Assembly: GCA_905178155.1 (NCBI GenBank)
Contig: CAJINV010000006.1
Location: 1,613,876-1,677,875 of the forward strand
Direction: 5' to 3'
DNA: 64,000 nucleotides
Origin: Amoebophrya sp. A120
Lineage: Eukaryota; Protista; Dinoflagellata
In this document: positions 30,001-54,000 of the stretch, one piece after another
Position numbering within the stretch: the stretch's first letter is position 1
Layout: every line of letters starts with the position of its first letter
Notes under the pieces: model-generated
The model's database searches: none
What the model saw: the letters and a program-made list of their open reading frames with translations, nothing else
Told to the model about the DNA's origin: nothing
Program-made: the position numbers and the translations under genes

Positions 30001-33000
30001 GCGTCACAGATCTAGCAGAGCATGCTGATTCTAGCATCACAAAGTCCACAACACGAATAGAAAACGCTTCTCATAGGCCTCCGCATGAGAAACATTCTTC
30101 GCATGCAGAATTGCATGACAACTCTGGGGTGGGCACGTTTTTACTCGGGATACACGACAAAAAAGCCCCACGTGAACCGCCTGCACCCGGAGGAAATATC
30201 CTGTGCAAAAGTATCGTACTCGTATTGCAATCATGCAATACAAATATCTTAAGGTAGATTCGCATTACAAATTTTATTTCTCATGCTGCGGAAATTTGTA
30301 ATGCATTTATACGATGAATACGATACTTCTGCAATGCATAGGAAAACGATGCCGACCATTTCTGCAAGAAGCCGAATGAAGAGTACTACGAGCGCAAGGT
30401 TAGAAAGGTGAAAGAAAGCCCGCAACACGGTGGAGCAGAGTGCGCTACGGGGGTTTGTGACGGGAAGAAGAAGGACAGCAGCACCGAGTGCTATTGCAGT
30501 GAAAAGTGCCCCCCACCCCTGAAAGTGCAAAATTTGTGATGCGAAGTTTCCAAATGAAAACTTTCTGTCATGCATGGAAGGAGTATGGATGTTTCTGATG
30601 CAGAGTCTAGGCATGTATCGCATCGCCTGCATGACAAGCGCCGCTCTTGCTGGGGCCTTTTGCAATACAAATTTTTGCTATTCACGATTGAAAACCTGTG
30701 ATGCTGATAGATGCAAGAGCGCGAATGTTTCATTTGGAAAGGTTTGCAATACAAATGCTTTCAAGTTCGGGGGTGGGGGCAATTTTCCTCGCGATAAGTG
30801 CGATCTAGCAACGGACCGGTTCTACAAAGACTACAAGGCCTGTGAGGCGTATGGATGTGTCAGGTTTGAAATTATCGACAAAGTTGAAATAATTTGTAAT
30901 GCATAAAATGGATGCCAGTTGGAACCCAGTTGCCAAGTGGCGCATGACAAATTTCGGTGGTCCCTAAATCCAGTTTGTCATGCTGTTTAGGCAAAGAAGA
31001 GCGATTTTCTCATGCTACTTTAGCAGCTCGATCTGTAACCCCAAACAGGCTGACAATCGGCCTCACTTGCCTGCTCTGCAACACACGTACCTCGGGTCAT
31101 GCATTTTATGCATGCCAAACTATTTCAACTTTGACGATTTCAAACCTGACACATCCATAAGGCGCTGAAGCCCTGCCCCATCGACTGCGAGCTTGGTGCG
31201 GAGTGGATTGTTATCAAATGCAAAAATGTCTGGATCTGGAAGAATGCCAGACTTGTCATGCAGGTTTTCCATGACCCATGAGGTCTGGCATGTAGGACAT
31301 AGCATGACAGATTCTGTGAGAGTTCTATCATGCCTGTCCTGCATGAGAAACTGCCTTTCGATTAGGTCAAAAGTGGACAGCTTTTGGCATATCATGCAAC
31401 ACAGATTTTTACATGATTCAGATTTAGCATGACAGGTGGCGTTGTTCCAGAGGACCCAGACACTTTTGCGCTTGATGATCGTAGGCTATGAGTCAATTTT
31501 CAAAACATCGACGACGTATCTGAGCGAGGAAGAGGCAAGAGGGAAAGCAATGAACGACCGCTGCCGCTCCAGCGCTGTGCAGTGGAGCACGTCGGCGGGT
31601 AGTGCCATCGCCTGCTCCACCATCTGCGACCCTCGTCAGGACGCTATCCTGAGTAAAAACGTACCCACACCAGAGTTGTCATGCAAATCTGCATGCCAAA
31701 AAAGTTCGTCGTCTCTTCCGTGAGAACAAAAACGTAAGGCGTAAAATGGGTCGGGTCCTGGATCGTTCTGTATGTTGGGCTGTCGCGCTCGGCTAGCTGG
31801 CCGGGCTGTACTGATCAGGTGTGGTGGGTAGCTCCCGACTGGTTGGTACTTTTCATGGGGCGACTTGCCGTGGTAGCGCTCGGCTTTTGTATGATGAGGT
31901 CGCCGAAAGTGCTTCCTCGCCCACCCCCCGGGGAGGGGATCCTTGACCTGTGGCGCTGGGAGCGGGTGTCCACTACATGATGATGATGATGATGATGCGG
32001 AGCGCAATGAGAGGCATTTTCTAGTCGTGCTTTGGAATTTGTGATGCTATAATCTGCATGATATACTAGATCTGTGATGCTGCTGAACTACCTAAACAGG
32101 ATTACACTACGAGGAGAAACTTGTCATGCCAAATGACCAAAGCTGGCTGATTTGTCTAGCAGATTTCCCATCTTGACTCTGGTATGGGGACGTTTTTACA
32201 GATGATAGACGCGTGGAGCTGTTTTTTCCAGCCGCAGGGACGAGATAGGGCATTCTCAGACGTCACGTTCTCAGCTCCCATTAAATAAATTTGTCATGCA
32301 AAACCACCATCAAGATTCACACGATCAAGCTGCTTCGCGTGACAAATTTGCGAAGGGCTAAACTGCATGAGGCGTCGAATCTGTAATGCGAGTGCTGCAA
32401 GCATTGCAAACTTCGGCTGTTGCTGCTCTTGCATTGCAAATTCACGTACGTGTTAACAGCTCAGAATGTAAACGTGGTTTGAAAACGCCATAAGAGAGTG
32501 CGCGTGCGTCGATCACGAGGCGGTTTATGCTCCGGACTATAAAATAAATTCAGCTTCTAGCTCAGGCGGAGAAGGAGAACAACCCCGACGGAATAAACAC
32601 AGGGAAAGTACAGATTGCTACAAAGACACAACGGGCAGTACTAGCACCGCGGCAAAAGCAAAAGCAGAAGCGAAGCCGGGGGCTGCTGCTTCCTTTCTGT
32701 CCTTCTGGTTCGCGGCGCCAGCGCCGGAGGGAGGAGGTAGAAGTACGTATGAATTGCAAAAGTGTCTGGGTCTGGAAGAATGCAAGCTTGTCATGCTTAT
32801 CTGGCATGACTCAAGAATCTGTGTTGCATAGGCACGAAAAAAGCCCTCTTACCTGTCATGCAAAAACGCAGTTTGCCATGCAGAATACGTAAGACATGGC
32901 AGCCAAAAAATTTGTCATGCATAGCTGCGAATTCCAGTGCGTCTATCATTCACTTTTAGTATTACAAGCTTCCAGACCCAGACATTTTTGCAATCCATAG

Positions 33001-36000
33001 TACTCCTGCGCCGACAGCAACCACACCGGGCACTTCCCAGTCGCCCGTAACTTGCAGGCCGGAAAGCGATATGTAATGCAAAAGCATCGTACTAGTATAA
33101 ATCGCATGACAAATTTCCTCAGCATGAGAAATGAAATTTGTAATGCAGATTTGCCTTGGGAACAAGATGCAAGATTTGCATTTATACGAGTACGATACTT
33201 TTGCACAGGATAAACGAAAGCTCCTACTACCGCGAACGCGTGCGGGAAATCAAGGTGCAGCCGGGTTTTGGCGGCGACGCGTGTCCCACGAAGGTTTGCA
33301 CGGAAACGAAGGCGGAAGATTGCGACCCCATGGAAGACTACGGGGTCTGGCGGGGGGATTATTTCGAGTGCGACCGAGATTTGCCACCCTGTCCCGTCGA
33401 TTGCGAAATGCACACCTTGCGAAATGCACACTGGACCGGGGGAGTGCCTCGACATGTCTTCCAGCCGGTGAATGCGCTTTATCCCAGCGACGTTCCTCTC
33501 ATCTCCTACGAAAAGATGGGGTTGGGCATGTGCGGCACACACGTCGCGGGGCCGATTCTTGACCCCGACTGGCGGGCGAAGCGATTCTGGCAGTGGGACG
33601 ACCGGAAGGTACTACGAGACGGCCTGGCAGCTGCTCAAGAAGGGATACCGCAGAAGTACGACGAAAGTGGTTCGTTTGTGTACTTCTCGGGCAAGAAAGA
33701 TTCTTCTCCTTTCCCACTGCCCGATAAGTACATCGAAGCGGCGAATAGCATGTGCGAACAATCGTGCACGAACAGTGAGTGGGCGGAAACCTGGGCCGGG
33801 GCCGCGGCTTGGGGAGAATTAAACGGCCAGACGTGGGACGCGTGGCGCAAAAGCCACCCATTCGGGAACGAACTGTTAATCAAAAGTAAAAATGTCTGGG
33901 TCTGGAAACTTGTGATGTAAGCCAGGGAATGCTGGGCGCACTGTCATACGTGGCCAAGCATGACAAGTTTTTGAGCTGCTACGTGTAGCGTATAATTCCG
34001 CATGGCAGACTGCGCGTTTGCATCACAGACAAAACGATCTTTTTGCATCTACGCATGACAGAGTTCCGAGTCATGTCAGACAAGCATGACAAATCTGGCA
34101 ATCTTCCAGACCCAGACAGATTTGCGATGCATAACTGTGCACGGGGTACAATTTCAAGGCGTGGGGTATGGGCGGGCTCTCAAATCGGTTACCTTCTCAA
34201 CTGTTACATGATTTGTAATGCAAAAACACTATCACTATTTACACGACCAAGCCTTCTTTGCACGACAACTTCTCGACGCGCTAAGGAGCACTTTAATCCG
34301 TCCCGAACAATCTGTAATGCAAGAAAAGGCGCAATCTTCCTTTCACTTTCGCCACTCTTGCATTACAAATTCATGTAACAGGTGAGAATGTAACGTTTGA
34401 GAACGCCATATAGGGCACCTGTTTGCTTTTCGTGACAACGATCCCGACCAAGGGCATGGGGGAAGAGCAGCCCAGTGCGAGTTGGGACGTGAATGAAATC
34501 TGGTCTAGCCTGAACGCGAACGCGAAAAAAGACCTCGTGGCCGACGTCCACTCCTGGGCCATGGCGCCGACTACTGGAACCCTCTGGCCGCCAAGCCCCT
34601 GCATGCGGAAGATCACAAAAGTGGTTGACAGGGAAAAAGTCCTCCACGCGCCGGCCTGCGTGACGGACAAGCGGGTAGAACAACCACCGCCGAGGAAAGT
34701 AGACCCGAGTAACCCGACGAAAAAATACAGCTGCGACGACGATACCTGCTACGACCGGGAAAATTGCGACGAGGACTGCTACGCCTGGTGCTGGCACCAC
34801 TGCTACTTCAACAGCGACTTTTTCGATGTGTGCGACGTGTGTACGTGCGACGAGGACACGTATGGGGTAGGGGAAAGAGCCTGCGACGCCCATGGCGGCA
34901 TGTGCTGCGCCATCGATCAGACAACACGGTATCAGTGCTTTGTGGACACGGGGGATGCAGAGGGAAGGCACGCGACGGCGGGGCAGTGTTGGGAGAGCCG
35001 GGACGACTGCCAGGCGGCGACGGACAAGTGGGGCTATGTGGGGAACGGCAAATTCTACGGCAACTGCGCCCAGGTCGGCGGCGAGGTGCCCTGGTTGTGG
35101 AAAGATGACACCGATGGCCGAGACTACCCGCTTGCAAACTCGGATGGTAGTCTCTTGCCGATCACCAAAGACCCGCACAACCGTACGCGAGAACAAAAAA
35201 ACTGTGTTAAGTGTAAGTCTGTGATGCAGAAAATGCAAAACAGTAACAGTTACGCTTGTCATGCTGCTGCACATGCGTGATAGGCTCGTTTCCTTGTACG
35301 TGTTTTCCCGTGGTCCTATCTCCGCATGACAAGTTTTTGCTGTCATGGCAGACAAATTTGTGATGCTGTTTTCCCAAAATAAGACCTACACTAACACAGT
35401 TTTTTTCTTGGAGAAACCGCGTCGTTTCCCCTCGTTGGCAACCCTACAGCAACGAGAAATTCCCGAACGAAAACAAAAACGCGGAAGCTATCCTGAGTAA
35501 AAACATCCCCACCCCATAGCTGTCGTGCAGATTTGCGATTACAGGAAGATCTGTAATGCGCATCTCCATGAGAGGCATTTCCAATCGCGTGTTGGAATTT
35601 GTAATGCTGTAAACAGGATGAACAGATGGATTTGTGACGCGGTTGCCCTTGCTAACATGCACTACACTACGGACTGCAACTTCTCATGCGTGGCTTCCAA
35701 AGCTTGTGGATTTGTCTTGCTAGGTTCCCAACTTGACTATGGGGTGGGGACGTTTTTACATAGAATAGAAGCGCCCTGGTGGGAGAGAAATGATATTAAA
35801 AGCGCTGCAGCAGCCAGTAGTTCTGACACCCGGATACTCAGACCACCTCCGGAAAAGAAAAACCGGGAACACTCCTACTCTCCGCCCCACGTGACGCCGC
35901 GAAACCACCCCGGGGGAATTTTGAGCAGCGAAAGTCGGGTGGCAAAACTCGGCAGGTTTTGCAAAATGAAGGGGGAAAATGATTACTTCCAGATTCGCCG

Positions 36001-39000
36001 TCGAGAAGTCAAAACTCCTCCGATTGGACCTGGCGCGGCCCCCTGTCCGATATGGATTGCAAAAATGTCTGGGTCGGGAAGATTGCAACTTGTCATGCTA
36101 AATCCGAATCATGCAAAAATCTGTGTTGCACGAGTGCCAAAAGCTGTCCACTTTCGACCAAGTTGGGAGGGAGTTTCTCATGTTGGATTGGCATGGCAGA
36201 GACCTCACAGAGTCTGTAATGCTAGGCTCCGCATTCCAGACCGCATGGGTCATGAAAGACCTGCATGACAAGTTTACACTCTTCCAGTCCCAGACTCAGC
36301 GAATAGTAGTGAGCATGCACCCACGGTGTGCTATTCGCACGGCCATGACACTACTGCGCGAGCACCCACAGGCTCCCAGGTGCCTAGCGCTTTGGCCAGC
36401 GTAGCACCTTGGTAGAGCCTGCGGGACCCCGTGGGCAGAAGTTCATTGCACCCAATTTGCATGTTGCGGAAGTGATAGTATAAGTAGCAGTAGTCAGTGC
36501 CGCCGGTGGACGTCATAGCATGCTTTTAATCTCTCTCCACATAGTGTATCCACGTAGTTCTCTTTTCTTTTCTTTCTTCAAAATGTTAAAGTCGTTCTCT
36601 TCCCTGCGCTGTACCATGGTCTTGCTTCCAGACAAAACACCAGACATTTTTGCATTTGATATCCGACAGGCAAGTGCAACGAGGGGAATGCAACCGGAAT
36701 TACACGGCCGGAAGACTGCGCAGCCGACGACGTGACCTACTTCGACTATACGGCCTGCTATTGTGAGGAAAAATCCCCCCTCCCCATAGTAATGAAAAGG
36801 TATGTTGCTAAAAATTTGTGATGCTGATTTGTGACCACAAATCCTGTCTCTCTTGCAAGAGGGCAAACATATAGAGTGCGCCGCTTTATGCGGGCGATTT
36901 GTAATGCTGTTGCGCTGATATGCCAGGGCTCTGCTATGCTAAGCACCTACAGCAAAACACCCCTACGCAGGCTTAGGGTTTGCCTGCAGTGCCTCCCTGC
37001 AAGACAGAGCTGATTTGTGTACACAAATCCAGCAACAGAAATTTCCGTTTCAATATGGGGAGGCGGGATTTTTCACTTTGATACCTGCGACCACTTCCCT
37101 CCATGTCCTGTTGATTGCATAGTGGGCCAGTGTATCAACTGTAAAAATGTCTGGGTCTGGAAGAATTCATGTTTGTCATGCTTGTCTGGCATGACTCTTA
37201 AATCTGTCATGCACGTTACCCAAGAGCCCCGTTATTCTGTGATGCAGAAACGCAGTTTGTCATGCAGAATAGGCAACACCTAGGAGCTCAGAAACTTGTC
37301 ATGCTGAGCCAGCATTTGTAGCCTCATCATGAGACGCCACCCAGCATCACAAGTTCCCAGACCCGGACATTTTTACTTTTGATACAGTGGTCAGAGTGGG
37401 GGACCTGCAAGCTGCGGAACGGCACGGATGTGACATGTGACGACCACTACGACGCTATCCTGATTAAAAACGTCCCCACACGAGGACCAGAGTCAAGATG
37501 GAAAATCTGCTAGACAAATCAACCAGCTTTCGCTGTTTCGCATGACAAGTCTGCTCTCGTAGTGTTGTAATCCTGTTTAGCTAGCTCAGAAGCATCACAG
37601 ATCTAGCACATCATGCTGATTCTTGCATCACAACTCTGTGGCGGGGGCGTTTTTACTCAGGATAGACGACGAAGTGCCGAAGGAAACGCGCACGCGAACC
37701 TATCAAAAGGAAAAATCCCCCCTCCCCATATCAAAACGAAAATCTGTGATGCGGGATTTGTGTACGCAAATCACCTTTGTATTGCAGAGAGGCATTGCGG
37801 CCAGATCCCCAGGCTAGGAAGGGGCGTATGGGTCTAGTTGTTCATCATGGCAAACGGTTCCCCTTTAGGCTCAACAGCATGGCAAATCGCTTCCGTAGTG
37901 GGGCAGGAGGATCTGCCCTGGTTTTCTTGCAAGACAAATTTGATTCGTGGCCTCAAATCAGCAACGCAAATTTTCGGAAACCTACCGTCTCAATATGTGG
38001 AGGGGGGATTTTTCCTTACGATAGAACCGCGACCCAGAAGCCGGAGAACGGAGGCTGGCCCTGTCCCCCGCTCGCGCGTGCGTATCGATTGCAAATCTGT
38101 CTGGGCCTGGGAAATTGCGAGATTTGTCATGCTAATAAATTTGGCATGACTCTGAACTCTGTATTGCGTGGCCGCAAAGAGCTCCTCTTCCCTGCCATGC
38201 AAAAACGCAGTTTCTCTTTCTCATGCGAAATACACAACTCAGAACCATGAAAAAAACTTGTCATGCTTGGCAGCGCATTACAGTGAGCTCACTATTCGTA
38301 TTCCCCTCCTGGAATCACAAGTTTTCAGATCCAGACATATTTGCATTTGATAAGGAGCGGAATTGCACGATAGACGGGCAGCCACTCAAGACCTGCATTA
38401 TCGACTGCGTCATGTCCGAGTGGGAACAGGAAGGACAACACTGTTTCGACCCCGCCACGAAGAAGCCCGCAACCTGCCTGGACGACCCGGACCCGGGGTT
38501 TCCCTATCCCCCCCCCGCCAATTATCCTGTGCAAAAGTATCTGATACTCGTATTGCAGTCATGCACTACAAGTCTTTTTCTTGAGGTAGATCCGCATTAC
38601 AAATTTTATTTCTCGTGCTGAGGAAATTTGTATATGCATTCACACGAGTGCGATACTTTATTTGCAGTTCATACCGATGGCGAGCCGCAGCGGCCCAAAG
38701 CGGTGCCCATGCGGAAGCTGACGAGAAAAGTGCTGGTGGAGGCCCGCCACGGTGGCAGGGCGTGCCCCACGAATCTTGAGAAGTATGCAATGTAAATTTC
38801 CTGTACATGTACAAAATGCATGACAAATTTCGCTAACTTGCAGTGTCCAACTTGTCATGCTAAACTAGGATTGAAGGCAAGTTTTGTCATGCAGAGACTG
38901 CATTTGTTTTTGTACGTGTACGGGAAATTTACTGTGGATAAGAAGGAGGTGGAGTGCACCTTTGACAAAGACCCGAAACTACCGAACACGGACGTATGAA

Positions 39001-42000
39001 CTGCAAAAGTATCGTACTCGTATAAATGCATTACAAATTTCCTCAGCATGAGAAGGAAAATTTGTAATGCGGATTTACCTTAAGAAAAAGATTTGTAATG
39101 CATGATTGCAATACGAGTGCGATACTTTTGCACAGGATAGGACGGGACGCTGCCCTATTGCAAGATCGACTGCCAAATGGACGAGTGGGGCCCTGCAACG
39201 GACCCGGCGTGCAGCAACAACGTGACGCATAAAGTTGATTACAAGCGCAACAAAACAGTAGAGACAGACCAGGGCGCGTGTCGGAAGGATGAGTCCTTTG
39301 GGCCCGGGTTTGGCTACTACAAAAACCGAACCCGCAAGGTTTTGCATAGAGAAAAGCACGGTGGTATCCTATGTAAAAACGTCCCCACACCATAGTCAAC
39401 AAGATGGGGACTCGGCTAGACAAATCCATAAGTTGTGGCTGTTCTGCATGACAAATCTGGACTCATGTTGCACTGCTGTTTGAGCTAGCTCAGCAGTATC
39501 ACAGATCTAGCGCATCATGCTGATTGGAGCATGACAAATTCCAAAACATGAGTGGAAAATGATTCACATGGGGCTCCGCATGAGAAACCTTGTCAGCATG
39601 CGGATTTGCATGACAACTCTCGGGTCGTGGGGACGTTTTTGCACAGGTTAGGCGGGAAGGCGTGTCCGACCGGGATCTGCCCGGAAAACAACTATGCAAA
39701 GAAAAAAGTTTTACAGTTACACATTGTGATGCAAAACATGCAAGACTTTCCATGCGTCAAATGCTTACGAGTCTAGTTTCGTGTGTGTTTTGCCTTTATA
39801 AACTCTGCATTACAAGTTTTCTTCGTCATGCGAGGCATATTTGTAATGCTGAACTCACTACAAATGTGTCACTGTAACACTTTTTTCGTGGGATAACAAC
39901 GCCTTGAATTCTACTGCAGAGAACTGCGACGCTTATGCAACCTACCGGGACTTTTCCGACGCTGCGGGGTGCGACGGGATGGAAGTCTGCCCGTTGGATT
40001 GCGTTATGGCGGACGAGGGCTGGGAAGACACGGGGCGGTGTGTCCGGAAAGACAATGGGCAGTCCGACTATCCGCATGACGAGGTCCCCGAGGATATCCT
40101 GTGCAAAAACGACGTCCCCAAACCAGAGTCAAGATGGGAAACTTGCTAGACAAATCAACCAGCTTTGGTTGCTTCGCATGACAGGTGTGTCCTCGTAGTG
40201 TAATGCTGTTTAGGTAGTTCAGCAACATCACAGATGTAGCATATCATGCGGATTCTAGCATCACAAACCTCAAAACACCACTAGAAAATGCTTCTCATGG
40301 GTCTCCGCATGAGAAACATTTTCAGCATGCGGATTTGCATTACAACTCTGGGGTGGGGACGTTTTTACTCAGGATAGAGGACCCCGACGCCCCGGGTGCG
40401 GCCAAGCCCTGCCGAAAGGAAAACACGTGGTACTACCGACTACGGACGCGGTATGGAAGCGTCAGAATTGAAATCGTCAAAGTTGAAATACTTTGTGATG
40501 CATAAAATGCTAGACTCAAAGTGCCTCTCTTGCAGAGCAGGCAACTGAGGCCGATTACAATCCTGTTTGGGGTGTGAGATAGAGCTGCTAAAATAGCATG
40601 ACAAAAGCATTCTTCTCTGCCCAAACAGCATGCCAAATTGGATCTCCATGCTGCCAAAATTTGTCATGCGCCACTTGCAAACTGGGCTCCAGCTGGTATC
40701 GCTTTTTTGCATTACAGATTATTTCAACTTTGACGATTTCGATCCTGACACCCCCATACGCGGAAGAGGCTCGTCGAGCCCAACGCCGCCGGTACCCATA
40801 TGGCGTTCTCAACTGTTACATTCTCAACTGTTACATGATTTGTAATGCGAAACAAACATCAACACTCACAAGGTGAAGCTACTTCGCATTACAAATTTTG
40901 GAAAGGCTAAACAGCGCCTAAATCTGTGCGGAATTTGTAATGCTACTGGTGCAACCTACCTGCTTTCACTTTTGCCATTCTTGCATCACAAATCCATGTA
41001 ACAGTTGGGAATGTAACAGTTGAGAACGCCATAACCCAGTGCCCGACAGATACCTGCGCGACAGAGGACTTCAACCCCGCCGACGGAAATTATGCCGACG
41101 TTTCGGAGGCAGTAAAAGAACTCGACAGAAAGTGTGTAGAGCTGGGCGGCAAATCCTATAAAAACTGGTGGGCCTGCGGGGTGAAGGAGACTGACTGCGT
41201 TATCCTGAGTAAAAACGTACCCACCCCAGAGCTGTGATGCAAATCTGCATGCCAAAAAAGTTTCTCATGTGGAGCCGCATGAGAAGCATTTTCTATGCAC
41301 GTTTTGGAATTTGTGATGCTATAATCAGCATGTTGTGCTAGAGCTGTGATGCTGCTGAACTACCTAAACAGGATTACACTACGAGGGCAAACTTGTCATG
41401 CGACACAACCAAAGCTGGCTGATTTGTCTAGCAGATTTCCGATCTTGACTCTGGTGTGGGTACGTTTTTACTCAGGATATGCGCAACGGCCTACTTGGCA
41501 ACGGGTGACTACGCGCAGGCGGGGACCGGGGGGAGGGGCTCGGTCCGAAACTGCGGCAACCTCCTATCCTGTGCAAAAGTATCGTACTCGTAGTAATTGC
41601 ATTTATGCATTTACAAATCTCTTTCTCAAGGTAAATCAGCATTACAAATTCAATTTGTAATGCTGGCGGAATTTGTAATGCAATTTATACTAGTACGATG
41701 CTTTTGCATTGCATACCTCTATCACGGTTGCAGTATTCTGACGGATCATAATAACGGCATTCCCGTAGTGTTCAAGGGCTGCATATCAAGAAGAAAAATC
41801 CCCCCTCCCCATATCAACACGGAAATCTATGTTGCTGTATTTAAGTACACAAATGACAGCTGTCTTGCAGTAAAGGATTGCACGCAGATCGTAAGCCTAG
41901 GGGGGGGGCCTCTTGGTGTAGGGGACTAGCATGGCAGACGTCTGCCCTATAGGCTTGGCAGCGTTCTTACAAATCGCCTGCATATCGTGGCGGGGTCTCT

Positions 42001-45000
42001 GACTTTGTTGCCCTCTTGCAAGAGAGACAGGACCACTTGTGGCCACAAATCAGCAGCGCAAATTCTTAGAAGCATACCTTTGCAGTATGGGGACGAGGGG
42101 GGATCTTTCCTTTTGATATTGCAACGTAGACAACGATGGCCACCGCCAGGGTAACACTCTGGCATTATGTCAACAGTGGTGTCAGCAAGATGGGAACTGT
42201 GCATGTTGGTCTTTTTGTGGAAAAAACCAGTGTAAGCTAACGACCCCTCTATGCATTGCAAAAGTATCGTACTAGTATAAATCGCATGACAAATTAGCTC
42301 AGCATTACAAATGAAATTTGTAATGCTATTTTGCCTTAGGAAAGAGATTTGTAATGCATAAATGCAATTAGTACGAGTACGATACTTTTGCACAGGATAC
42401 CCTCTGCCCGGCTACAACTGTTGCTGGTTGAAACCTCTCAACGACTATGGAAGCGTCAGGATTGAAATCGTCAAAGTTCTTGAAGTATATAACTTGTAAT
42501 GCATAAAATCGATACCAGTTGGAAGCCCAATTCCCAAGCCGTGCATGACAAATTTTGGTGGTCCTTAAATCCAGTTTGTCATGCTCTTTAGGCAAAGAAG
42601 ACTGATTTTCTCATGCTACTTAACCAGCTCGAGCTCTAACCCCAAACAGGCTTTTTACGATCGGCCTCACTTGCCTGCTCTGCAACACACGTACCTCGCG
42701 TCATGCATTTTCTGCATTACGAAGTATATTTCACCTTGTCGATTTCAAACTTGACACTTCCATAACGACATCATTGAGTTTAATTTTGACAGGTTTCCCG
42801 GTTACACCAGCGGGTGCTGTTACTACGACTCAAGCACCTACTGCTCGAACCAGTGCGTAAACAACGCCGGGCCGTTATCCTGAGTAAAAACGTCCCCACG
42901 CCAGAGTTGTCATGCAGATTTGCAATGACAGGAACATTTGTAATGCGCATCGCCAGGAGAGGCATTTTTAGTCGTGTTTTGGAATTTGTAATGCTGTAAA
43001 CAGGATGAGCAGATGGATTTCTGATGCAGCTGGCCTTGCGAACCTGCACTACACTACGGACTGCAACTTGTGATGCGTGACCCCCAAAAGTTGTAGGCTT
43101 GTGTTGCAAAATCCCCATCTTGACTCTGGTGTGGGGATGTTTTTACTCAGGATAGCCGTGCGAGCGGTATTACATGGCAAAAATTGAAACCTACCCAAAA
43201 ATATGAACTGCAAAAGTATCGTACTCGTATAAATGCATTACAAATTTCCTCATGAGAAAGAAAATTTGTGATGCGGATTTGCTTTCAGAAAAAAACTTGT
43301 AATGCATGATCGCAATACGAGTGCGATACTTTTGCACAGGATAAAAAAACGGCGGCAAACTGTGCGGGGAGGGACGGGACCTGTTTCGCTATCCTGAGTA
43401 AAAACGTACCCACACCAGAGTTGTAATGCAGATTTGCAAAGACAGGAAGACTTGTAATGCGCATCCCCATAAGAGCCATTTCCAATCGTGTTTTGGAATT
43501 TGTGATGCTGTGAACAGGATGAGCAGCTGGATTTGTGATGCGGCTGCACTTGCTAACCTGCACAACACTGCAGAGTGCAACTTGTCATGCGTGACTCACA
43601 AAACTCCTAGGTTTGTGTTGCAAAATCCCCATCCTGACTCTGGTGTGGGTACGTTTTTACTCAGGATATTCGCAAGGAGGTATTCACGGTAAACCCGTGG
43701 CAAGGCCCCGGGACCGCCGTAACCAATAGCAGCTGCCAGGACGAGGTGCAGCGGTGCGAGCAAGACATGACGGCGGACTGGAGCGCCTGCAGCGTGACCT
43801 GCGGGACTGGTGGCAAACAGTACCGAACGCAAAGAATTACCAAGCACCCCTACTTCATCACGTCTGCGGACATGGCCTGCAAGGAGCCCCTGATTGCCGT
43901 ACGGGACTGCGACCCGGCGCCCGCCGCGTGTCCAGCAGGTGGATTCGAGCTGGACTTTTGTCCGACAGACTGCGAGCTGGGAGGCTTCGACACGAACGAC
44001 GATCTCGTGAACTTGGAGGACTGCAAGCGGAAGGACTTGGACCTTCCCCCGCACGTCGACCGCACCACCGGCAAGTACTGCAGGGCGGACGAAACGGAGC
44101 ATTATTACGCGGTGCGCGTCCGGCCGATCACCACGCAGCCGCGCGGGAAGGACCCGACGGCCTGCGGGGAAGACGTGTGCAACAAAAACGCTAAGATATC
44201 CCTATGGCGTTCTCAACTGTTACATTCTCCACTGTTACGTGATTTGTCATGCAAAACTACCTTAAGCCGACAGATAATCAAGCTGCTTCGCATGACAAAT
44301 TTTCGAAGGACTCAACAGAGCCTAAATCTGTGCCAAATCTGTGATGCGAAAGCAGCAAGCTGGCCCCTTTGACTGTTGCCATTCTTGCATCACAAATTCA
44401 TGTAACAGTTGAGAATGTAACAGTTGGGAACGCCATAATCCCTCACGGGGATGGATCCGAACGGGGGGTGCAAAGCGACCGTATCCTGTGCAAAAGTATC
44501 GTACTCGTATAAATGCAAGTCGTGCATTACAAATCTTGTTCCCAAGGCAAATCTGCATTACAAATTTTATTTCTCATGCTGAGGAAATTTGTCATGCATT
44601 TATACGAGTGCGATACTTTTGCAGTCCATAGACCGATCGCTTTTACCACGACTACGGTTCCGGCAAGTGCAGCACCCTGCCGATCTGTCCCGTCAACTGC
44701 GCAACGACGGAGTGGAACACGACGCAGCCTGGCTTTGCGCGCTGCATCAGAGAAGAAGTATCAAATGTAAAAATGTCTGGGTCTGGAAACTTGTGATGCT
44801 GAGTGGCGTAGCATAAGGAGGCCACAAGTGCTGGCTCAGCATGACAAATTTCTGAGCTTGTAGGTGTTGCCTATTCTGCATGACAGACTGCGTCTCCGCA
44901 TGACAGAAAAAAACGTCTCTTGGGCAATGTGCATGACAGATTTAAGAGTCATGCCAGACAAGCATGACATCAATAAACATGCATTCTTCCAGACCCAGAC

Positions 45001-48000
45001 ATTTTTACATTTGATAAGAAGGACCCGAGAACATTTTCGCGGTCGAAGAGATCCACACGAACCGCACGCGGCTCCTCGAGCCACCGCCGTCCGTGCTCGA
45101 GCTGCACCAAGAAGCATCGCAGGACCCGAACTGCCCCCGCACGCCGCACGCACACCACCTCGGGTACGAAAAAGATGGCGTATCCTGAGTAAAAACGTCC
45201 CCACACCAGAGTCAGGATGGGGATTTTGCAACACAAACCTAGGAGTTTTGGGAGTCACGCATGACAAGTTGCACTCCGCAGTGTAGTGCAGGCTAGCAAG
45301 TGCAGCCGCATGACAGATTCATCAGCTCATCCTGTTCACAGCATCACAAATTCCAAAACACGATGGGAAATGGCTATGGCTCTCATGGGGATGCGCATTG
45401 CAAGTCTTCCTGTCTTTGCAAATCTGCATTACAACTCTGGCGTGGGTACGTTTTTCCTCAGGATATGGCGTCGGGGCGCGCTACGCTTACGACGCAAGAA
45501 GCTATCAGGCCTGCCTCCTTTTGTGCGTCGACAACTCCAGGTGTATCCACAGTAAATTTCCTGTAGTACACGTACAAACGCTGTCTCTGCATGACAAAAT
45601 TTGCCTTCAATCCTAGTCTAGCATGACAAGTTGGACACTGCAAGTTAGCGAAATTTGTCATGCATTTTGTACATGTACGGGAAATTTACATTGCATAAGG
45701 TGCAAGGGCTTTACATACCGAGTTGATGTACCCCCACCAGCATCTTCTTCCTCTACGGGAGAGCAGCTGCCCGGCGCAGCAGATGCTTCCTCGTCCTCTG
45801 CCGGACCGGTTACAGAATACCCGATTCCCCGATCGCGGGATGCCACCGAATACTGCGCGAGGCTGGAAAATGTCGACTTTCCCGATAGCGATGAGGATCT
45901 GATAGAAGACGACGGTAAGTTGTTCGGGAATAATCTCGGAGAGTTATCGTAAGGAAAAATCCTAATCCCCTTTCCCCATATTGAAAACGTACCCTCCTGA
46001 AAATTTGTGTTGCAGATTTGTGACCACAAATCCGGTTTGTCATGCAAGAAGGCAAATCCAGGCTGTCTACCGCGTTATGTAGGCGATTTGTAATGCTGTA
46101 AGGCCTACAGGGCAGACGTCTGCCATGCTAGGTGCCTACAGCAAGAGGCCCCTGTCTAGGCTTGCGAACTGCGTGCGTTGCTCTATTGCAGGACAAATTT
46201 GATTTGTGCGCAGAAATTCCGCATCACAGATTTCCGTCTTGATATGGGGAGGGGGGATTTTTCATTTTGATAAGAGTGGAAGAAGACTGGCGGGGATAAC
46301 AAGGACGTGTGGCAGAATGCGATCCGTGGGCACAAAACGTTTCACGAGTGTTGGGCTGCCTGTTTAGACGAAAAAGACTGTATGGCCTTCGTGTATAAGA
46401 TATCAAATGTAAAAATGTCTGGGTCTGGAAGATTCTGACATTTGTCATGCACGTTTTGCATGAGCCATGATGTCTGTGATGCATACCCTAGCAATACAGA
46501 TTTTTTGAGGGCTTCTTGATGCCTATTCCGCATGACAAATGCCTCCTCAGCGTAGCAAAAGTTGCATTCTGTTTGCTACTCATGCAATACAGATTTTTTT
46601 GGAATCCAAATACAGCATCACAAGTTACATTCTTCCAGACCCAGACATTTTTACATTTGATATAAGAAAAAGCTCACCGTCGACTCCGCGGAAGACAACT
46701 GCTTGCTAAAGTCGCGCCTGCGACTCGAGACCGCGACGTACACCAATGACGAATCCGCTTGCTGCGACTCTGTGCTGATGCCCCCCAACTGCAAGGAAAA
46801 GGTGAAAGCGGTGAAAGATGTTGACCAGTCGGATGGAGGTCGTGCCTATCAAATGCAAGAATGTCTGGGTCTGGAAGATTGCGAGATTTGTGATGCATAT
46901 TTCGGATCACGCAAATGGCGTCTGATGCAGGCAAAAGCATGACAGGTTTTGAGCACGCCTCATGATGCCTGTCCCGCATGAGAAACTTCCTACCTGCGTA
47001 CCAAGAAATGGACAGCTTTTGGCGCTCATGCAACACAAATTTCTGTGTGTTGCAGAGTTTGCATGACAAGTTCCAACTCTTCCAGACCCAGACATTTTTG
47101 CATTTGATAGTGCCCCCGCCCAGCCGACGTGTTTTCTTCTCGACGACGCTGACCGTGTATGAAAGTGCACAACTCCCCTCCCCCTCATTTGTCATGCAAA
47201 ACACCAAATCCACGTCCTGCCTTTGGGCATTATCTGCATGCCAAATTTGGGAACCTCAAACAGCACTACGACCTGTATGCAGATTTGTCATGCGGAAGTC
47301 ACATGTCTGCGGTTACTTGTGTTGCTGTTCATGCAATACAAATGAGGGGGAGGGGGAGTTGTGCGCCCTTATACCGTAAATTTGCCGTGGAACAGAATGA
47401 TCCCAGCGCTGATACCTTCGCCGTGGAGATGACCGCCGCCTGTCGGCAGTCAAAACAGACCAAGTGCGATATGACTTGCTCAAGCGTTACAATCTCAAAC
47501 GTTACAATAGAATCTGGAATTTGTGTTGCATGATGGGCATGACAGACTCGCACAGCGTTCCACCTTTTGCAATACAAATTTCCCCTGATTGTAGTGGGGT
47601 TTGGAGCTCCGGAACTTGTCATGCGCAACCCTATGAGAGTTGGCTGGATCATGCTCATCATGCAAGACATCAAATCTCAGATTCTATTGCAACGTTTGAG
47701 ATTGTAACACCTGAGCGGGTTATATCCGAGGGCTGCCGCACCGAGAGCGACCACGTAAACGATTGTTCGCTTACCTGTGCTGGCCGCGGGGGTAGCGGTA
47801 GCAGCAGCTCGGGCGATGATCAAGATTCGGCGAAGGATAGAAACCCCGCCGCGGGCTGGTGCTCGAAGTGCGATTCCCAGGATGGCACGCTGCACGGCGC
47901 CGTATGGATTTGTCAGGATCGAAATCGATAAAGTTGAAAGAATTTATGTATGATGCATGAAACGGATGTAAGTTGGCGCCCAGTTTTCAAGTGGCGCATG

Positions 48001-51000
48001 ACAAATTTGGGCGAAACCAAAACCCAGTTTGTTATGCTGCTTGGGTAAGGAAGACGCCTTTTGTCATGCTACTTTAGCAGCTCTATTTCTGCAACCTCTC
48101 GGCAGGCTTATAACCTGCCTCACTTGCCAACTCTGCAAGCCAGGCATTTTGTGGACACACGCCCCGGTTCCATAGTCACAAAAATGCACAGTAAAAGTTT
48201 GATCTTATCTTAAATGCATTGTAGGTTCAAAAAGGACTTCAAAAAATGACTTGCATAGAGACACACTTAAATTTGTGTGATAGGTCCAATCGGTTTATAA
48301 ATTTCTACATGCAGAGCGACTTTGTAGTTTTTGGCTCCTTCACACAAATTTAGAACGGAAAATCAAAAAATAAAGATATGATCAAACTGAGGGGGAACGC
48401 ATACAGCATAGGAATTGCACTGAGAGGATTTTATGCTTGGACTTTATGAACCGCGCACAGGAATCCGAATTCGCCGCACATTAATGGGCTCGACTTTGCG
48501 TTGGGTTTAGGCCGGTGCTCAAGGCGAGGAGAAGGAATTTCTTCGTGGATTATCTAAACAACAACGACGAGAACAACACCGATGGGTTGATTACGGTTGG
48601 AGTGTAAGTGTTCCGAGTACTTTAAATTACAAGTTTTTCAACTTTGTCAATTTCGATCCTGACGCAACTTCCATACGCGTGCTGTCAGGCGTACAACTAC
48701 GCCGATCCGAGCGAGTGTCGCCACGACTACAATTTTCTGTTGCAGACCCGGCCCTCGCACGCACGGAAATATCACCAGTGTGTTTTGCCACAGGTGCGGC
48801 GCCCGAAGTATTCGGCGGCGGTTCTGTATGGAAGCGTCAGGATTGAAATCGTCAAAGTTGAAATAATTTCTCATGCATAAATTGCAAGGCATGAAGTGCC
48901 TCTCTTGCAGGGACGGCAAGTGAGGCCGACTGTCAGCCTGTTTGGGGTCTGCGGTAGAGCTGCTGAAGTAGCGTGACAAAAGACGCCTTCTGTCCCAAAA
49001 CAGCATGACAAACTGGATTTAGACGTGGCCGAAATTTGTCATGCGCCGCTTGAAAATTGGACTCCCAACTGGTATCGATTTTATGCATTACAAGTTATTT
49101 CAACTTTGTCGATTTCAAACCTGACACTCCCATATTCTGGACTCCTCGTCCACCCTGCGTGCTGTTCCGACGCCAGAGAATATCGCAAGAAAAAACTGTT
49201 TCACTGGGAACTTGTGATGCAGAAAACGAAACACCAAAGTGTTTGTCTTGCTACACCTGCATAGAGCATTGGAGTTTCTTCACGCGTGTTTTACCCTATA
49301 GGAAATGCACGCATGGCAGATTTTCAGTGTTATGTGTAAACAAACTTGTAATGCAGATCTTGCAAAATCACCACAGTGAAGCGGCTTTTTCGTGGGATAG
49401 AGAAGTACTGCGGTCCGCCAAACACCTTTTTCCAGAAGATTTTCCTATCCTGTGTAAAAACGTCCCCTCCAGCCCAGAGTTGTCATGCAGATTTGCCATG
49501 ACAGGAGCATTTGTGATGCGCAACCCCATGACAGGCGTTTTCAATAGTGTTTGGGAATTTGTAATGCTGTAAACAGGAAGATAAGCAGATCGATTTGTAA
49601 TGCGGCTTTCCTTGCTATCTTTCACTACCTTAACCTTACGGACTGCAACTTGTCATGCGTCACCTCCAAAACTCCTAGGTTTCTGTTGCAAAATCCCCAT
49701 CTTGACTCTGGGGTAGGGACGTTTTTACTTCGGATATTTCCGCGAGGTGATCCATCCGGCCAAGGGGGAAGGCGCGCTGTCTTGCCCACCCGACGTACGA
49801 ACTGCAAAAGCATCGCACTTCTAGTAGTAATTGCCTAATACAAATTACCTCAGCATGACAAATGGAATTTGTGATGCTGTTTTAGCTTGGGATGGTGGAG
49901 ATTTGTAATGCATAACTGCAACTACTACGAGTGCGATACTTTTGCACAGGATACGCCGAGTTAGAGAGCAACACCGCGCCCCTTGGGCCTGGCACCGGAT
50001 CGACTTACCACCTGTATCGTAATTGGACAGCCTGTATGAAGTGCAAAACAAGCATCGTACCTGTATAAATTGCAATACAAATTGGCTCAGCATTACAAAT
50101 TGAATTTGTAACGCGGATTTGCCTTGAAACAAAGATTTGTAAATGCATAAAAGCAATTAATAGTACGAGTGCGATACAACTTTTGCACAGGACAGCCTGC
50201 GCTGCCGTGCCGGAGTGCCCGGTGGACTGTATCAAATGTCAAAATGTCTGGGTCCTCTGGAAGATTGCCAGGTTTGTCATGCACGTGGTGCATGACGTGT
50301 GAGGTCTGTGATGCGTGCCCTAGCATCACAGATTTTGTGAGATCTTTACCATGCCTTTTCCGCATGAGAAAATGCCTCTCGGCCTTCTCAAAAGTGAACA
50401 GCTTTATTGGTAATCATGCTGCGTGATTCCCTGGGTCTTACAGTTGCATGATGCAACACAGATTTTTGTATGATTCAGATTTAGCATGACAAGTTGTACT
50501 CTTCCAGACCCAGACACTTTTGCAATGCATAGACTGTAAGACTTCGGCGTGGAGGACGGATGAAACTGCGGACGACTGCTTTTATGGATTGTAAAAATGT
50601 CTGGGTCTGGAAACTTGTGATGCATGTCAGTGAACGGAAAGCGCCTTGTAATGCACCGCCAAGCATGACAGATTTTCTCGTGGCTCTCTGTTGCGTATTC
50701 CGCATGAGAAACATCGTTTTTGCATGACAGACAAGAGGAGGTCTTCGTGGCCACGCAATACAGAGTTCAGAGTCATGCCAAACTAGCATGAGAAATCTCG
50801 AAATCTTCCAGACCCAGACATTTTTGCAATCCATAGTTTTAACAACAAAACCAATTTGCCCGACAACTCTCTCGTGGACGGTACCTACCCTGTGTAAAAA
50901 CTTTTCCAACTATATGCAAGAAAAAAACTATGTGAGTGTAAATCTGTGATGCAGAAAGTGCAAAACTGTTACACTTGTCATGCTGGATCTGCGTCATACG

Positions 51001-54000
51001 CTACTTTCATACGTGTTTCCACGTACTAGCTGCGCATGACAGATTTTCCCTGTAATGCAAAGGTAATTTGTGATGCTGCTTTTCCTACACAGTTACACTT
51101 ACACAGTTTTTTTCCTGGATAAACTACCCATAGTTCTTGCCATGCAAATCTGCATTGGAGGTGAAAATGTCTCTCACGCGGAGCCCCATGACACGCATTT
51201 TCTACTGCTGTTTGAAGTTTGTGATTTACCTACAATCAGCATGAGAAACAAGATTGGTGATGCTGCTGCGCTAGCTCAAGATCGCGATTACATTTTTGCG
51301 AACCCAGCAAATTTGTCATGCGCAACAGCCAAAGCTTGCTAATTTGTCTTGCAGATTTCCCAACTTGTTGACTCTGGGGTCGGGCCGACGTTTTTACATA
51401 TGATTACACGCCCTGTCTCAAGGACGGGGAGCGGTACTACAGAAGAAAGGTCCGCGACGTGGATATCCTGTGTAAAAACGTCCCCACCCCAGAGTTGTCA
51501 TGCAAATGTGCAATGACAGGAACATTTGTAATGCGCATCTCCTTGAGAGGCATTTCCAGTTGTGTTTTGGAATTTGTAATGCTGTAATCAGGATGAGCAA
51601 ATGGCTTTTTCATGCGGCTTTCGTTGCGAACCAGCACTACACTGCAGATGGAAACTTGTCATGCAGAACTCCCAAAGCTTGGAGATTTGTGTTGCAGATT
51701 TCCCATCTTGACTATGGTGTGGGGACGTTTTTACATAGGATAGTGGAAACGCCAATGCTTCATGGTGGGAAGGAGTGCCCGAGTGGGTGGTGCAAGGCCG
51801 GGGAACTGGAGCAATTGTTCAAATTATTCCATGACAAGCTCGCGGCCCGCCCAACATATCCTGAGTAAAAACATCCCCACACCAGAGTCAAGATGGGGAT
51901 TTTGCAACACAAACCTAGAACTTTTGGGGGTCACGCATCACAAGTTGCAGTCCGTAGTGTAGTGCAGGCTCGCAAGGCCAGCTGTATCAGGAATCCATCT
52001 GCTCATCCTGTTTACAGCATTACAAATTCCAAAACACGACTAAAAATGCCTCTCCTGGCGATGCGCATTACAAATGTTCCTGTCATTGCAAATCTGCATG
52101 ACAATTCTGGCGTGGGTACGTTTTTACTCAGGATACAACATCGCAGCGGGTCACGTTTGAAGACATCGACTCGGAGGCTATCAAATGTAAAAGTGTCTGG
52201 GTCTGGAAGATTGCCAGGTTTGTCATGCACATTTTGCATAACTCCTGATCGATCTGTGACGCATGCCCTAGCATGACAGATTTTGTGAGGGCTTCCTGAT
52301 ACCTACACCGCATGACAAATGCTCTTTCCGTGTAGCAAAAATTGGACTCTCTTTGCTGCTCATGCAATACAGATTTTTTCAGGATCCAAAATCAGCATGA
52401 CAAGTTGGATTCTTCCAGACCCAGACATTTTTACAGTTGATAGAGGCAGTAACGGACCAACAACTGACCGAGCCTGAGGTGATTACCTTCGTGGACAACG
52501 GTGTTGACAATGATGACACCCTGCTGAATATCAAATGTAAAAGTGTCTGGGTCTGGAAGAATGCATGTTTGTCATGCTTGTCTGGCATGACTCGAGAATC
52601 TGTCATGCACGTTGCCCAAGAGCCGCATTTTTCTGTCATGCGGAGACGCAGTTTGTCATGCAGAATAGGCAACACCTACAAGCTTAGAAATTTGTCATGC
52701 TGAGCCAGCACATGTGGCCCCCTCATGCTACGCCACTCAGCATCACAAGTTTCCAGACCCAGACATTTTTGCAGTTCATACTGAAGACGAAGAAGCAGTT
52801 TTTCTCCTGGATCCGAAGGCAGGACCCCGGCCTATCAACTGTAAAAATGTCTGGGTCTGGAACAAAGCAACTTGTCATGCTATATCAATATCTGAATCAT
52901 GTAAAAATCTGTGTTGCATGATTGCCAAAAGCTGTCCACTTTTGACCTAATCGAGAGGCAGTTTCTCATGCAGGATAGGCATGATAGAACTCTCACAGAA
53001 TCTGTCATGCTCTGTCCTACATGCCCGACCTCATGGGTCATGGAAAACCTGCATGACAAGTCTAGCACTCTTCCAGACCCAGACATTTTTGCACTTGATA
53101 CGGCCTTCCTGGTTACCAGAGCCCCGGCGCCGACCCAGGGTTCGAAAACATCGGGAAAGAGGAATGGCTGACAACTTTACATCTGCAGTTTGGCTTGGAG
53201 TGGATCGAAAAGAAGGATTTGGACAATCTGAAAAAAGTTTTGACCGGGGGGCCGCAGGTTCAGAACACGGACACCTGCATATGACAGTGCACAACTCCCC
53301 CTCCCCTTCCTTTGTCATGCAGAGCCCCAAATGCAAGTGCTTCCCTTTGGCACTGTTTGCATGACAGATTCCGGAAGGAGCCCAAACGCAAACAGTGCTA
53401 CACGAGGCGCATAAATTTGTCATGCACAGGCTCCACATGTGCTGGTGTTTGTATTGCTGTTTGTGCAACATCAGAAATGAGGGGGAGGGGGAGTTGTGCA
53501 CATTCATACTGAAAGGATGCGCTTCACTACAAAGATTTCGACGATGACTTTTGTATCAGCAGTAGCGGATACAAAGATAAGCTTCCCCGCTGTCCTATCG
53601 CATGCGAAATGACGGTATGAACTGCAAAAGTATCGTACTAGTATGAATCGCATGACAAATTTCCACAGCATGAGAAATAGAATTTGTGATGCGGATTTAA
53701 CTTGGCAAAAAAATTTGTAATGCATGAATGCGATTAGTACGAGAACGATGCTTTTGCAGAGGATAGACGGACTGGGAGGATGATTTGTCCCATTTTGGAC
53801 ACTATTAAATGCAAAAATGTCTGGGTCTGGAAGAATGCATGTTTGTCATGCTTGTCTGGCATGACTCTTAAATCTGTCATGCACGTTACCCAAGACCTCC
53901 ATTTTTCTCTGATGCAGAAACGCAGTTTGTCACGCAGAGTAGGCAACACCTAGTAGCTCGGAAACTTGTCATGCTGAGCCAGCACTTGTGGCCTCATCAT

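Follow-up and report, generated by a model that had tools for sequence, protein, structure and literature searches.

Introner elements acting as introns in both orientations, with unequally kept tips, in a giant gene of Amoebophrya sp. A120

Can one transposable element serve as an intron whichever way it faces, and, if so, what marks its ends? This question is raised by a 64,000-nt stretch of the genome of the dinoflagellate Amoebophrya sp. A120 (contig CAJINV010000006.1, forward-strand positions 1,613,876–1,677,875; hereafter, the window), in which a plus-strand reading frame is interrupted by 147 elements with terminal inverted repeats (TIRs), totaling 40,474 of the 64,000 nt. The GC content of the window is close to 0.49. 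An earlier note on this DNA had proposed that such elements act as introns in both orientations and, spliceosomal signals being strand-specific, that their recognition rests on symmetric features such as the TIR stem, the TAT/ATA tips, and the dyad motifs. The intron behavior in both orientations is real and well supported, and it falls within a known class of elements. The inference of symmetric recognition needs correction: the TIR is indeed common to both orientations, but the two tips are unequally kept and the dyad motif appears to be dispensable.

Element anatomy and removal in both orientations

The elements follow a single plan: each has TAT at or close to its start and ATA at or close to its end, and is flanked on each side by a copy of a 5-bp target. 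The inventory combines a search for this anatomy with 26 diverged or nested copies added by hand. The target duplication is perfect in 104 of the 147 elements, has one mismatch in 36, and has more in the remaining 7. Base counts at both ends of all 147 elements define the TIR as TAT, followed by seven variable bases and then by at least three A. Fourteen families with two or more copies take in 127 of the 142 unnested elements, and all strand assignments within them are consistent. TIRs, a target duplication of fixed length, shortness, absence of coding capacity, and insertion in both orientations are traits of miniature inverted-repeat transposable elements (MITEs), and the elements are likely non-autonomous DNA transposons of the Amoebophrya A120 introner type. 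Their targets show no base bias at the 17 positions tested around them in the window, nor do the window insertions favor a codon phase (50/40/57).

For comparison, a second assembly was sampled by a pattern scan of metagenome contigs, in which 363 distinct elements related to those of the window were obtained from 130 overlapping loci of 792 kb in total. The 79 loci that were listed lie on contigs of one assembly, and strand could be called for 255 elements. The element finder used there recovered 88 of the 147 window elements and allowed one tip mismatch, so that young copies are favored. No autonomous partner was found: of five longer TIR-bounded stretches among the 130 loci, none has a stop-free run of more than 231 amino acids. 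A Ginger-like transposon (5-bp duplication, TGT-like tips) may be considered as a candidate for the origin of the elements.

The reading frame provides the first line of evidence for removal. When each of the 147 elements is excised together with 5 nt (element+5), along with one 718-nt GT-AG insertion of another type, a single plus-strand frame of 7,290 codons without a stop is obtained. Excision of element+2 leaves 3 stops in the best frame, that of element+8 leaves 7, and six other lengths leave at least 125; the best minus-strand frame after excision contains 73. The four pairs of near reverse complements to which the earlier note had drawn attention are confirmed: their members are 92.4%, 97.5%, 96.8%, and 93.6% identical as reverse complements, compared with 59–63% on the same strand, and the coordinates given for them hold, except that one copy (given as 24758–25008) ends at 25009 (Table 1). 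All eight paired copies have perfect 5-bp duplications and, as had been claimed, interrupt the same stop-free frame. It should be added that for these eight copies the evidence of removal is the frame, none being bridged by a listed contig.

Neither orientation is preferred. The eight families with at least five copies in the window split 16/12, 10/12, 8/10, 6/7, 6/6, 4/4, 5/2, and 2/3 (summed chi-square 2.5, 8 degrees of freedom). Among the 255 strand-called elements of the second assembly, the larger families split 36/45, 13/19, 15/15, and 13/21 and a fifth 13/5, with 49 elements unassigned.

The second line of evidence comes from contig 13 of run X5, which is probably RNA. This contig of 791 letters aligns on 60673–60917, 61414–61589, and 62069–62330 with 0 differences, and its internal positions are those expected if four elements have been excised as exactly element+5, and not as +2 or +8. 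The four elements belong to two families, each present both ways, so that contig and frame (the latter for all 147 elements) agree in supporting removal in both orientations. Three further pieces among those listed for X5 begin or end at a duplication (35178, 57050, and 62756).

Could the elements be lost from DNA instead, by a somatic excision like that of internal eliminated sequences, or could X5 derive from an element-free allele? Such an explanation would suit the transposon anatomy, and the assignment of X5 to RNA is a guess. Against it, reads of the DNA-like run X1 continue across exon-element borders, so that exon and element stay contiguous at a uniform depth of ~42 (8 listed pieces, one DNA sample), whereas the X5 pieces are bounded by exons, patchy, and 2–6 deep, with 0 differences while four elements are absent. 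Moreover, tens of thousands of such introns have been validated against the genome by RNA sequencing (Farhat et al., PMC7789003; here and below, published work is cited from parts of each source). In our opinion, removal at the DNA level is very improbable.

As a separate observation, the raw RNA runs X10–X12, another sample set under the same species label, gave on 30000–49900 only repeat pieces and no match to the exons; the 15 joints displayed for them were artefacts of repeats. Runs X6 and X7 likewise gave no exon piece among those listed. Nearly all of the X10–X12 pieces continue into unlike sequence. They represent related elements, 90–95% alike and some at hundreds of reads, and would be retained or untranslated-region copies from other loci.

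Splice signals, predicted folds, and the internal motif

Exact removal allows the cut to slide within the duplication, and the frequencies expected for each pair of intron ends were computed from exon sequence on this basis. GT-AG ends are possible in 7 of the 147 elements (5.0 expected), GY-AG in 10 (8.8 expected), and AT-AC in 5 (4.2 expected), so that a canonical donor and acceptor occur at chance level; in the second assembly, GT-AG is possible in 14 of 255 elements. Nor is there a strand excess of the branch consensus, YTRAY being found near the 3′ end of 28 elements in sense and 26 in antisense. It had been allowed that each orientation might turn out to have its own conventional branch point and AG, and these figures indicate otherwise. 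An explanation by cryptic canonical splicing, with a separate donor, branch point, and AG for each orientation, can point to a TNAC core 11–56 nt from the end in 114 of the 147 elements and to 58 elements in which GT and AG lie in frame no more than ~12 nt from the ends. For the other 89 elements, however, no such GT..AG pair lies nearby, branch-like words are equally common on the opposite strand, and X5 contig 13 fits exact removal at +5, where GT-AG stays at its chance frequency. This explanation is largely refuted already, and we give it next to no credence. Recruitment of a G on both sides (element+2 with GT..AG ends) was also considered and rejected: 14 cases were seen against 13.7 expected, and X5 contig 13 excludes it.

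A quite different explanation, close to that of the earlier note, is a symmetric, structure-guided excision by a non-spliceosomal nuclease-ligase that is blind to the order of the ends, as in euglenids. In its favor, folding predictions pair the two ends whichever way the element faces: 10 or more of the first 20 nt are paired in the predicted folds of 141 of 142 elements in sense and 137 of 142 in antisense, with no difference in predicted energy (p=0.78). Canonical sites and an AG are missing, U1 snRNA was undetected in A120 (PMC7789003), and the nonconventional introns of euglenids and diplonemids pair end to end, those of Euglena leaving as circles. However, any TIR would give such folds on both strands, and a TIR stem is already expected from transposition alone. 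Selection on an RNA stem was undetected, G.U pairs numbering 90 and A.C mismatches 88 in the stems, which is weak evidence either way. Changes private to single copies likewise give no surplus of G.U, with 47 G.U vs. 35 A.C within the repeats and 132 vs. 117 in the interior; the power of this comparison is low because most mismatches are inherited. In the test of arm covariation, an element's own arms barely surpassed shuffled arms, with p<0.05 in 2 of 8 families. Together with the unequal conservation of the two tips described below, these results make symmetric excision rather unlikely in our view.

The internal dyad motif, GCAT(G/C/T)ACA, occurs 209 times in sense and 219 times in antisense in 142 elements and is absent from 22 kb of exon; the extended form GCAT(G/C/T)ACAA is common to otherwise unlike families. 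Copies are spaced 16–18, 31–34, 46–49, or 65 bases apart, with a best period of ~16 obtained without a null model, and this spacing suggests a protein lattice on DNA. The motif is possibly a site for a transposase or a chromatin protein, and GCATNACAA is more likely a DNA-level site, serving transposition or chromatin, than a splice signal. Family 2 is instructive here, as it has the motif on one strand only: in 9 of its 10 reversed copies, the transcript has no motif, even when one mismatch is tolerated, and the frame is nevertheless preserved. The proposed need for dyad motifs is not supported by these copies. For GCATNACAA as a branch point usable in both directions, the same 9 of 10 copies without it led to rejection in family 2, and a nearest copy 61–130 nt from the end led to rejection in family 1.

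Unequal tips and the position of the cut

If recognition were symmetric with respect to the tips, as the earlier note had read them, the two should be kept alike. They are not: in the window, the upstream TA is altered in 0 and the downstream TA in 12 of the 147 elements (Fisher p=0.0004). The same imbalance is seen in 121 automatically found copies (0 vs. 7), in 123 copies for which unique boundaries were set anew without reference to the tips (0 vs. 8), and in the 104 copies with a perfect duplication (0 vs. 5). The downstream tip changes at ~4% per base, comparable to the rest of the repeat (3–10%). In the second assembly, the upstream and downstream counts are 1 vs. 6 for the first base (p=0.125), 2 vs. 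2 for the second, and 7 vs. 2 for the third; pooled over 402 elements, they become 1 vs. 13 (p=0.002), 2 vs. 7 (p=0.18), and 15 vs. 4 (p=0.02), respectively.

The position of the cut can be approached through imperfect duplications, since, where the two copies differ, the coding consequence shows which of them stays in the message. A stop would be created by the downstream letter at base 1 of one duplication (element 4079, a copy with uncertain ends), at base 2 of another (34167), and at base 4 of a third (53280). Two of the informative elements, one with a conserved Cys and one with a conserved Trp at the junction, bound the cut from either side (Table 1), and at base 1 of the duplication of 60922, the letter in X5 contig 13 is that of the upstream copy. 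A single register fits the stop, Trp, and RNA cases, and from these we infer that the 5′ cut precedes the upstream TA by one base and that the 3′ cut follows the downstream ATA by four. A cut at this point places the best-kept T at +2 and the A at +3, as in the GTA of the established donor consensus, but with a free first base. Farhat Table S4 (PMC7789003) lists nine predominant non-canonical sites for A120 and nine for A25; those of A120 are all of the form NT-NN, and those of A25, whose repeat begins with TTA, are all TT-NN. These sites are supportive of the register without being independent proof, as the handling of ambiguous junctions by the aligner may bear on them.

We consider it probable, with some reserve, that a putative relaxed U2-type spliceosome takes whichever repeat comes first as the donor and measures off the 3′ cut from the second. 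According to this model, elements would insert either way at random-looking 5-base targets and would be removed from the pre-mRNA together with exactly one target copy. The first inverted repeat to be met would be read as the donor, the 5′ cut falling one base before TA so that the intron would begin N-T-A; the 3′ cut would fall four bases after ATA, placed not by an AG but by distance from the downstream repeat or from the base of a hairpin. As the repeats mirror each other, a flipped element would keep both signals. The premise that strand-specific signals argue for symmetric recognition sets up a false choice, a TIR being able to supply a strand-specific signal to both orientations, as reported for the introners of Polarella and Aureococcus.

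Several points weigh against this model or its register. The register rests on about five junctions, and at two other elements, 16961 and 57421, a cut farther upstream, with the downstream copy supplying base 4, gives the better reading (57421 by eye; neither involves a stop). The splice position in A120 has been called variable or unknown (PMC7789003). Duplication mismatches in the second assembly (loci L001–L130) are synonymous in 28 of 45 cases, compared with the 38–49% expected for a fixed cut (p 0.001–0.044). In that assembly alone, the tip asymmetry follows the same trend but is weaker and non-significant, and three mutated upstream tips (TTT, TGT, and AAT) lie there within long open frames. 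Finally, run X5 is RNA by software guess only, and removal with both flanks aligned is observed for only 4 of the 147 elements.

Some of these points would be accommodated by duplication-guided joining, in which the two 5-base copies are aligned, the cut slides, and either copy may reach the mRNA. Removal always at element+5, the synonymous excess in the second assembly, and the two window junctions that prefer another register speak for this explanation. However, 43 of the 147 duplications are imperfect, 7 of them by at least two bases, and the frame is still kept; the three downstream copies mentioned above would yield stops; and in the window, duplication mismatches show no synonymous excess (21 of 54). 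We regard a sliding cut as improbable.

A more specific form of the spliceosomal model, which we put forward tentatively and consider somewhat unlikely, treats the TIR as a two-way cassette. The upstream TIR would act as a donor N-U-A with a free +1 position, and the first A of the ATA in the downstream TIR would be the branch nucleotide, with the 3′ cut falling seven bases further on at a place without AG that distance determines. A hint in this direction is the third TIR base, one of the three positions tested, which is altered more often upstream than downstream in the pooled set (15 vs. 4 of 402, p=0.02). If this were true, a spliceosome without U1 combined with a two-way cassette would tolerate any five-base target, phase, and orientation at no cost to the protein.

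Known introns, the host gene, and other features of the locus

The window elements fit the introners already published for Amoebophrya A120, which have repeats starting with TAT followed by seven variable bases and an A run, direct repeats of 3–5 nt, and 29,850 copies (PMC7789003). A120 genes contain tens of introners each (PMC12130899), and the method of Gozashti 2022 (PMC9860276) allows for insertions in opposite orientations. The correspondence extends to the form of the TIR, the direct repeat at the junction, repeated families, and RNA removal that is mostly not GT-AG (seen in probable RNA for 4 of the 147 elements and through the frame for all). The A120 introners are of the same kind throughout, with 5-bp repeats (Fig. 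S19 legend), non-canonical junctions, many families, a mean length of ~240 nt, and a proposed hairpin. For A120, U2, U4, U5, U6, and nearly all spliceosomal proteins have been found (PMC7789003), and the authors leave the splicing mechanism and the cut position open. No statement on orientation balance, tip asymmetry, a fixed N|TA register, or a shared GCATNACAA in Amoebophrya was found in the parts of the Farhat text and supplement consulted or in the literature searched, subscription journals and figures S19–S25 aside.

Three other systems invite comparison. Introns derived from transposons with TIRs and target duplications, inserted in either orientation, are likewise known from Polarella glacialis (classes 6, 8, and 10) and, via the Polarella preprint, from Aureococcus anophagefferens. 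Polarella introners are spliced either way with recruited G(T/C/A)/AG sites and show a strand bias (10.1101/2020.10.14.339549). In these two species, targets are constrained and supply G(T/C/A) donors or AG acceptors, the duplications are of 8 nt, and orientation and phase are biased; the window elements, in contrast, have unconstrained 5-nt targets and neither bias. In euglenids and hemistasiid diplonemids (PMC11282704, PMC12621601), nonconventional introns share non-GT-AG ends, pairing of the ends, short junction repeats, and a likely MITE origin with the window elements, but have a CAG/CTG motif inside the ends, and in Euglena they are released as circles, with no lariat. In Fritillaria borealis (PMC11282704, PMC13326754), MITE-derived introns share the TIR and the target duplication, and an adapted U2 spliceosome is thought to be responsible for their removal. 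They prefer AG-AC or AG-AT ends, and in this species U1 is kept and U2AF duplicated, whereas the window elements have no preferred dinucleotide besides the T at the second position.

Splicing that is blind to orientation and makes no demand on the target explains why 63% of a coding locus of 64 kb can consist of such elements while the protein stays unchanged. The tip asymmetry and the mismatched duplications offer cheap, direct tests, using existing genome and RNA data, between a spliceosome working without U1, G+1, and AG and some other enzyme.

The host protein is likely a giant adhesin that the parasite secretes or carries on its surface. It contains 451 Cys, thrombospondin type-1 (TSP1) repeats, and linkers rich in Pro, Ser, and Thr; of seven long exons scanned, four match Pfam TSP1_spondin/TSP_1, one has a weak EF-hand match, and two have no match. 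Its closest database relatives are TSP1-repeat proteins that are 25–36% identical. No copy of the host protein that could fix the junction letters, whether from annotation or from transcripts, turned up in protein searches, and no Rfam family matched anywhere in the 64-kb window.

Table 1. Coordinates of the host frame and of the insertions discussed in the text
Feature	Positions	Strand	Remarks
Host open reading frame	1..63799	+	At least 7,290 codons, ends beyond the assembled part; ~149 exons; 147 TAT..ATA elements and one GT-AG element
Element, family 12, orientation A	38784..38940		157 nt; duplication 38779–38783 and 38941–38945; exact removal without a GT-AG option
Element, family 12, orientation B	45544..45697		154 nt; 92% reverse complement of 38784–38940; duplication AGGTG happens to permit GT-AG
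Element, family 2, orientation B	42876..43154		279 nt; orientation in which 9/10 copies lack GCATNACAA on the transcribed strand
Element, family 2, orientation A	51857..52135		279 nt; 97.5% reverse complement of 42876–43154
Element, family 3, orientation B	13018..13269		252 nt; downstream tip mutated to ATT, frame preserved
Element, family 3, orientation A	24758..25009		252 nt
Element, family 0, orientation A	1354..1616		263 nt
Element, family 0, orientation B	62959..63224		266 nt; 93.6% reverse complement of 1354–1616
Element absent from X5 contig 13	60922..61078		Family 1, orientation B; duplication copies differ at first base, upstream letter kept
Element absent from X5 contig 13	61146..61413		Family 0, orientation B
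Element absent from X5 contig 13	61595..61858		Family 0, orientation A
Element absent from X5 contig 13	61911..62068		Family 1, orientation A
Element informative for the cut	53280..53508		Downstream copy would give TGA replacing a conserved Cys; cut at most one base before upstream TA
Element informative for the cut	22778..23001		Conserved Trp only via fifth base of downstream copy; cut likely at least one base before upstream TA
Second insertion type	59013..59730	+	718 nt, GC content 0.63, GT..AG ends, short terminal inverted repeats, 9-bp duplication

Excision of the second type of insertion (59013–59730) is required for the frame, and no listed RNA contig spans it. Its GT..AG ends make use of one target base, and GT-AG excision would leave three extra codons. 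This insertion suggests that canonical splicing operates in the same transcript as the TAT..ATA elements.

Several elements have themselves received insertions or otherwise depart from the common plan. The family 0 element at 54106–56377 has grown to 2,272 nt through a nested passenger with inverted ends of its own and a 68-nt tandem repeat; neither its outer repeats nor its duplication is disrupted, and the frame is preserved. Nested insertions are also present in the elements at 31645–32207, 36051–36661, 47903–48675, and 50886–51405 (520–773 nt), and a TAT..ATA element with its own 5-bp duplication sits within another element at 50913–51121. At 14767–15103 and 38083–38352, the flanks no longer resemble a duplication, differing at 4 and 3 of the 5 bases, and excision at +5 still preserves the frame. 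A 2,940-nt element in locus L058 of the second assembly (11264–14203) differs from the window families and has no stop-free run of more than 219 amino acids; it carries perfect 24-nt TAT..ATA repeats and a 5-bp duplication, and apparently interrupts a minus-strand frame.

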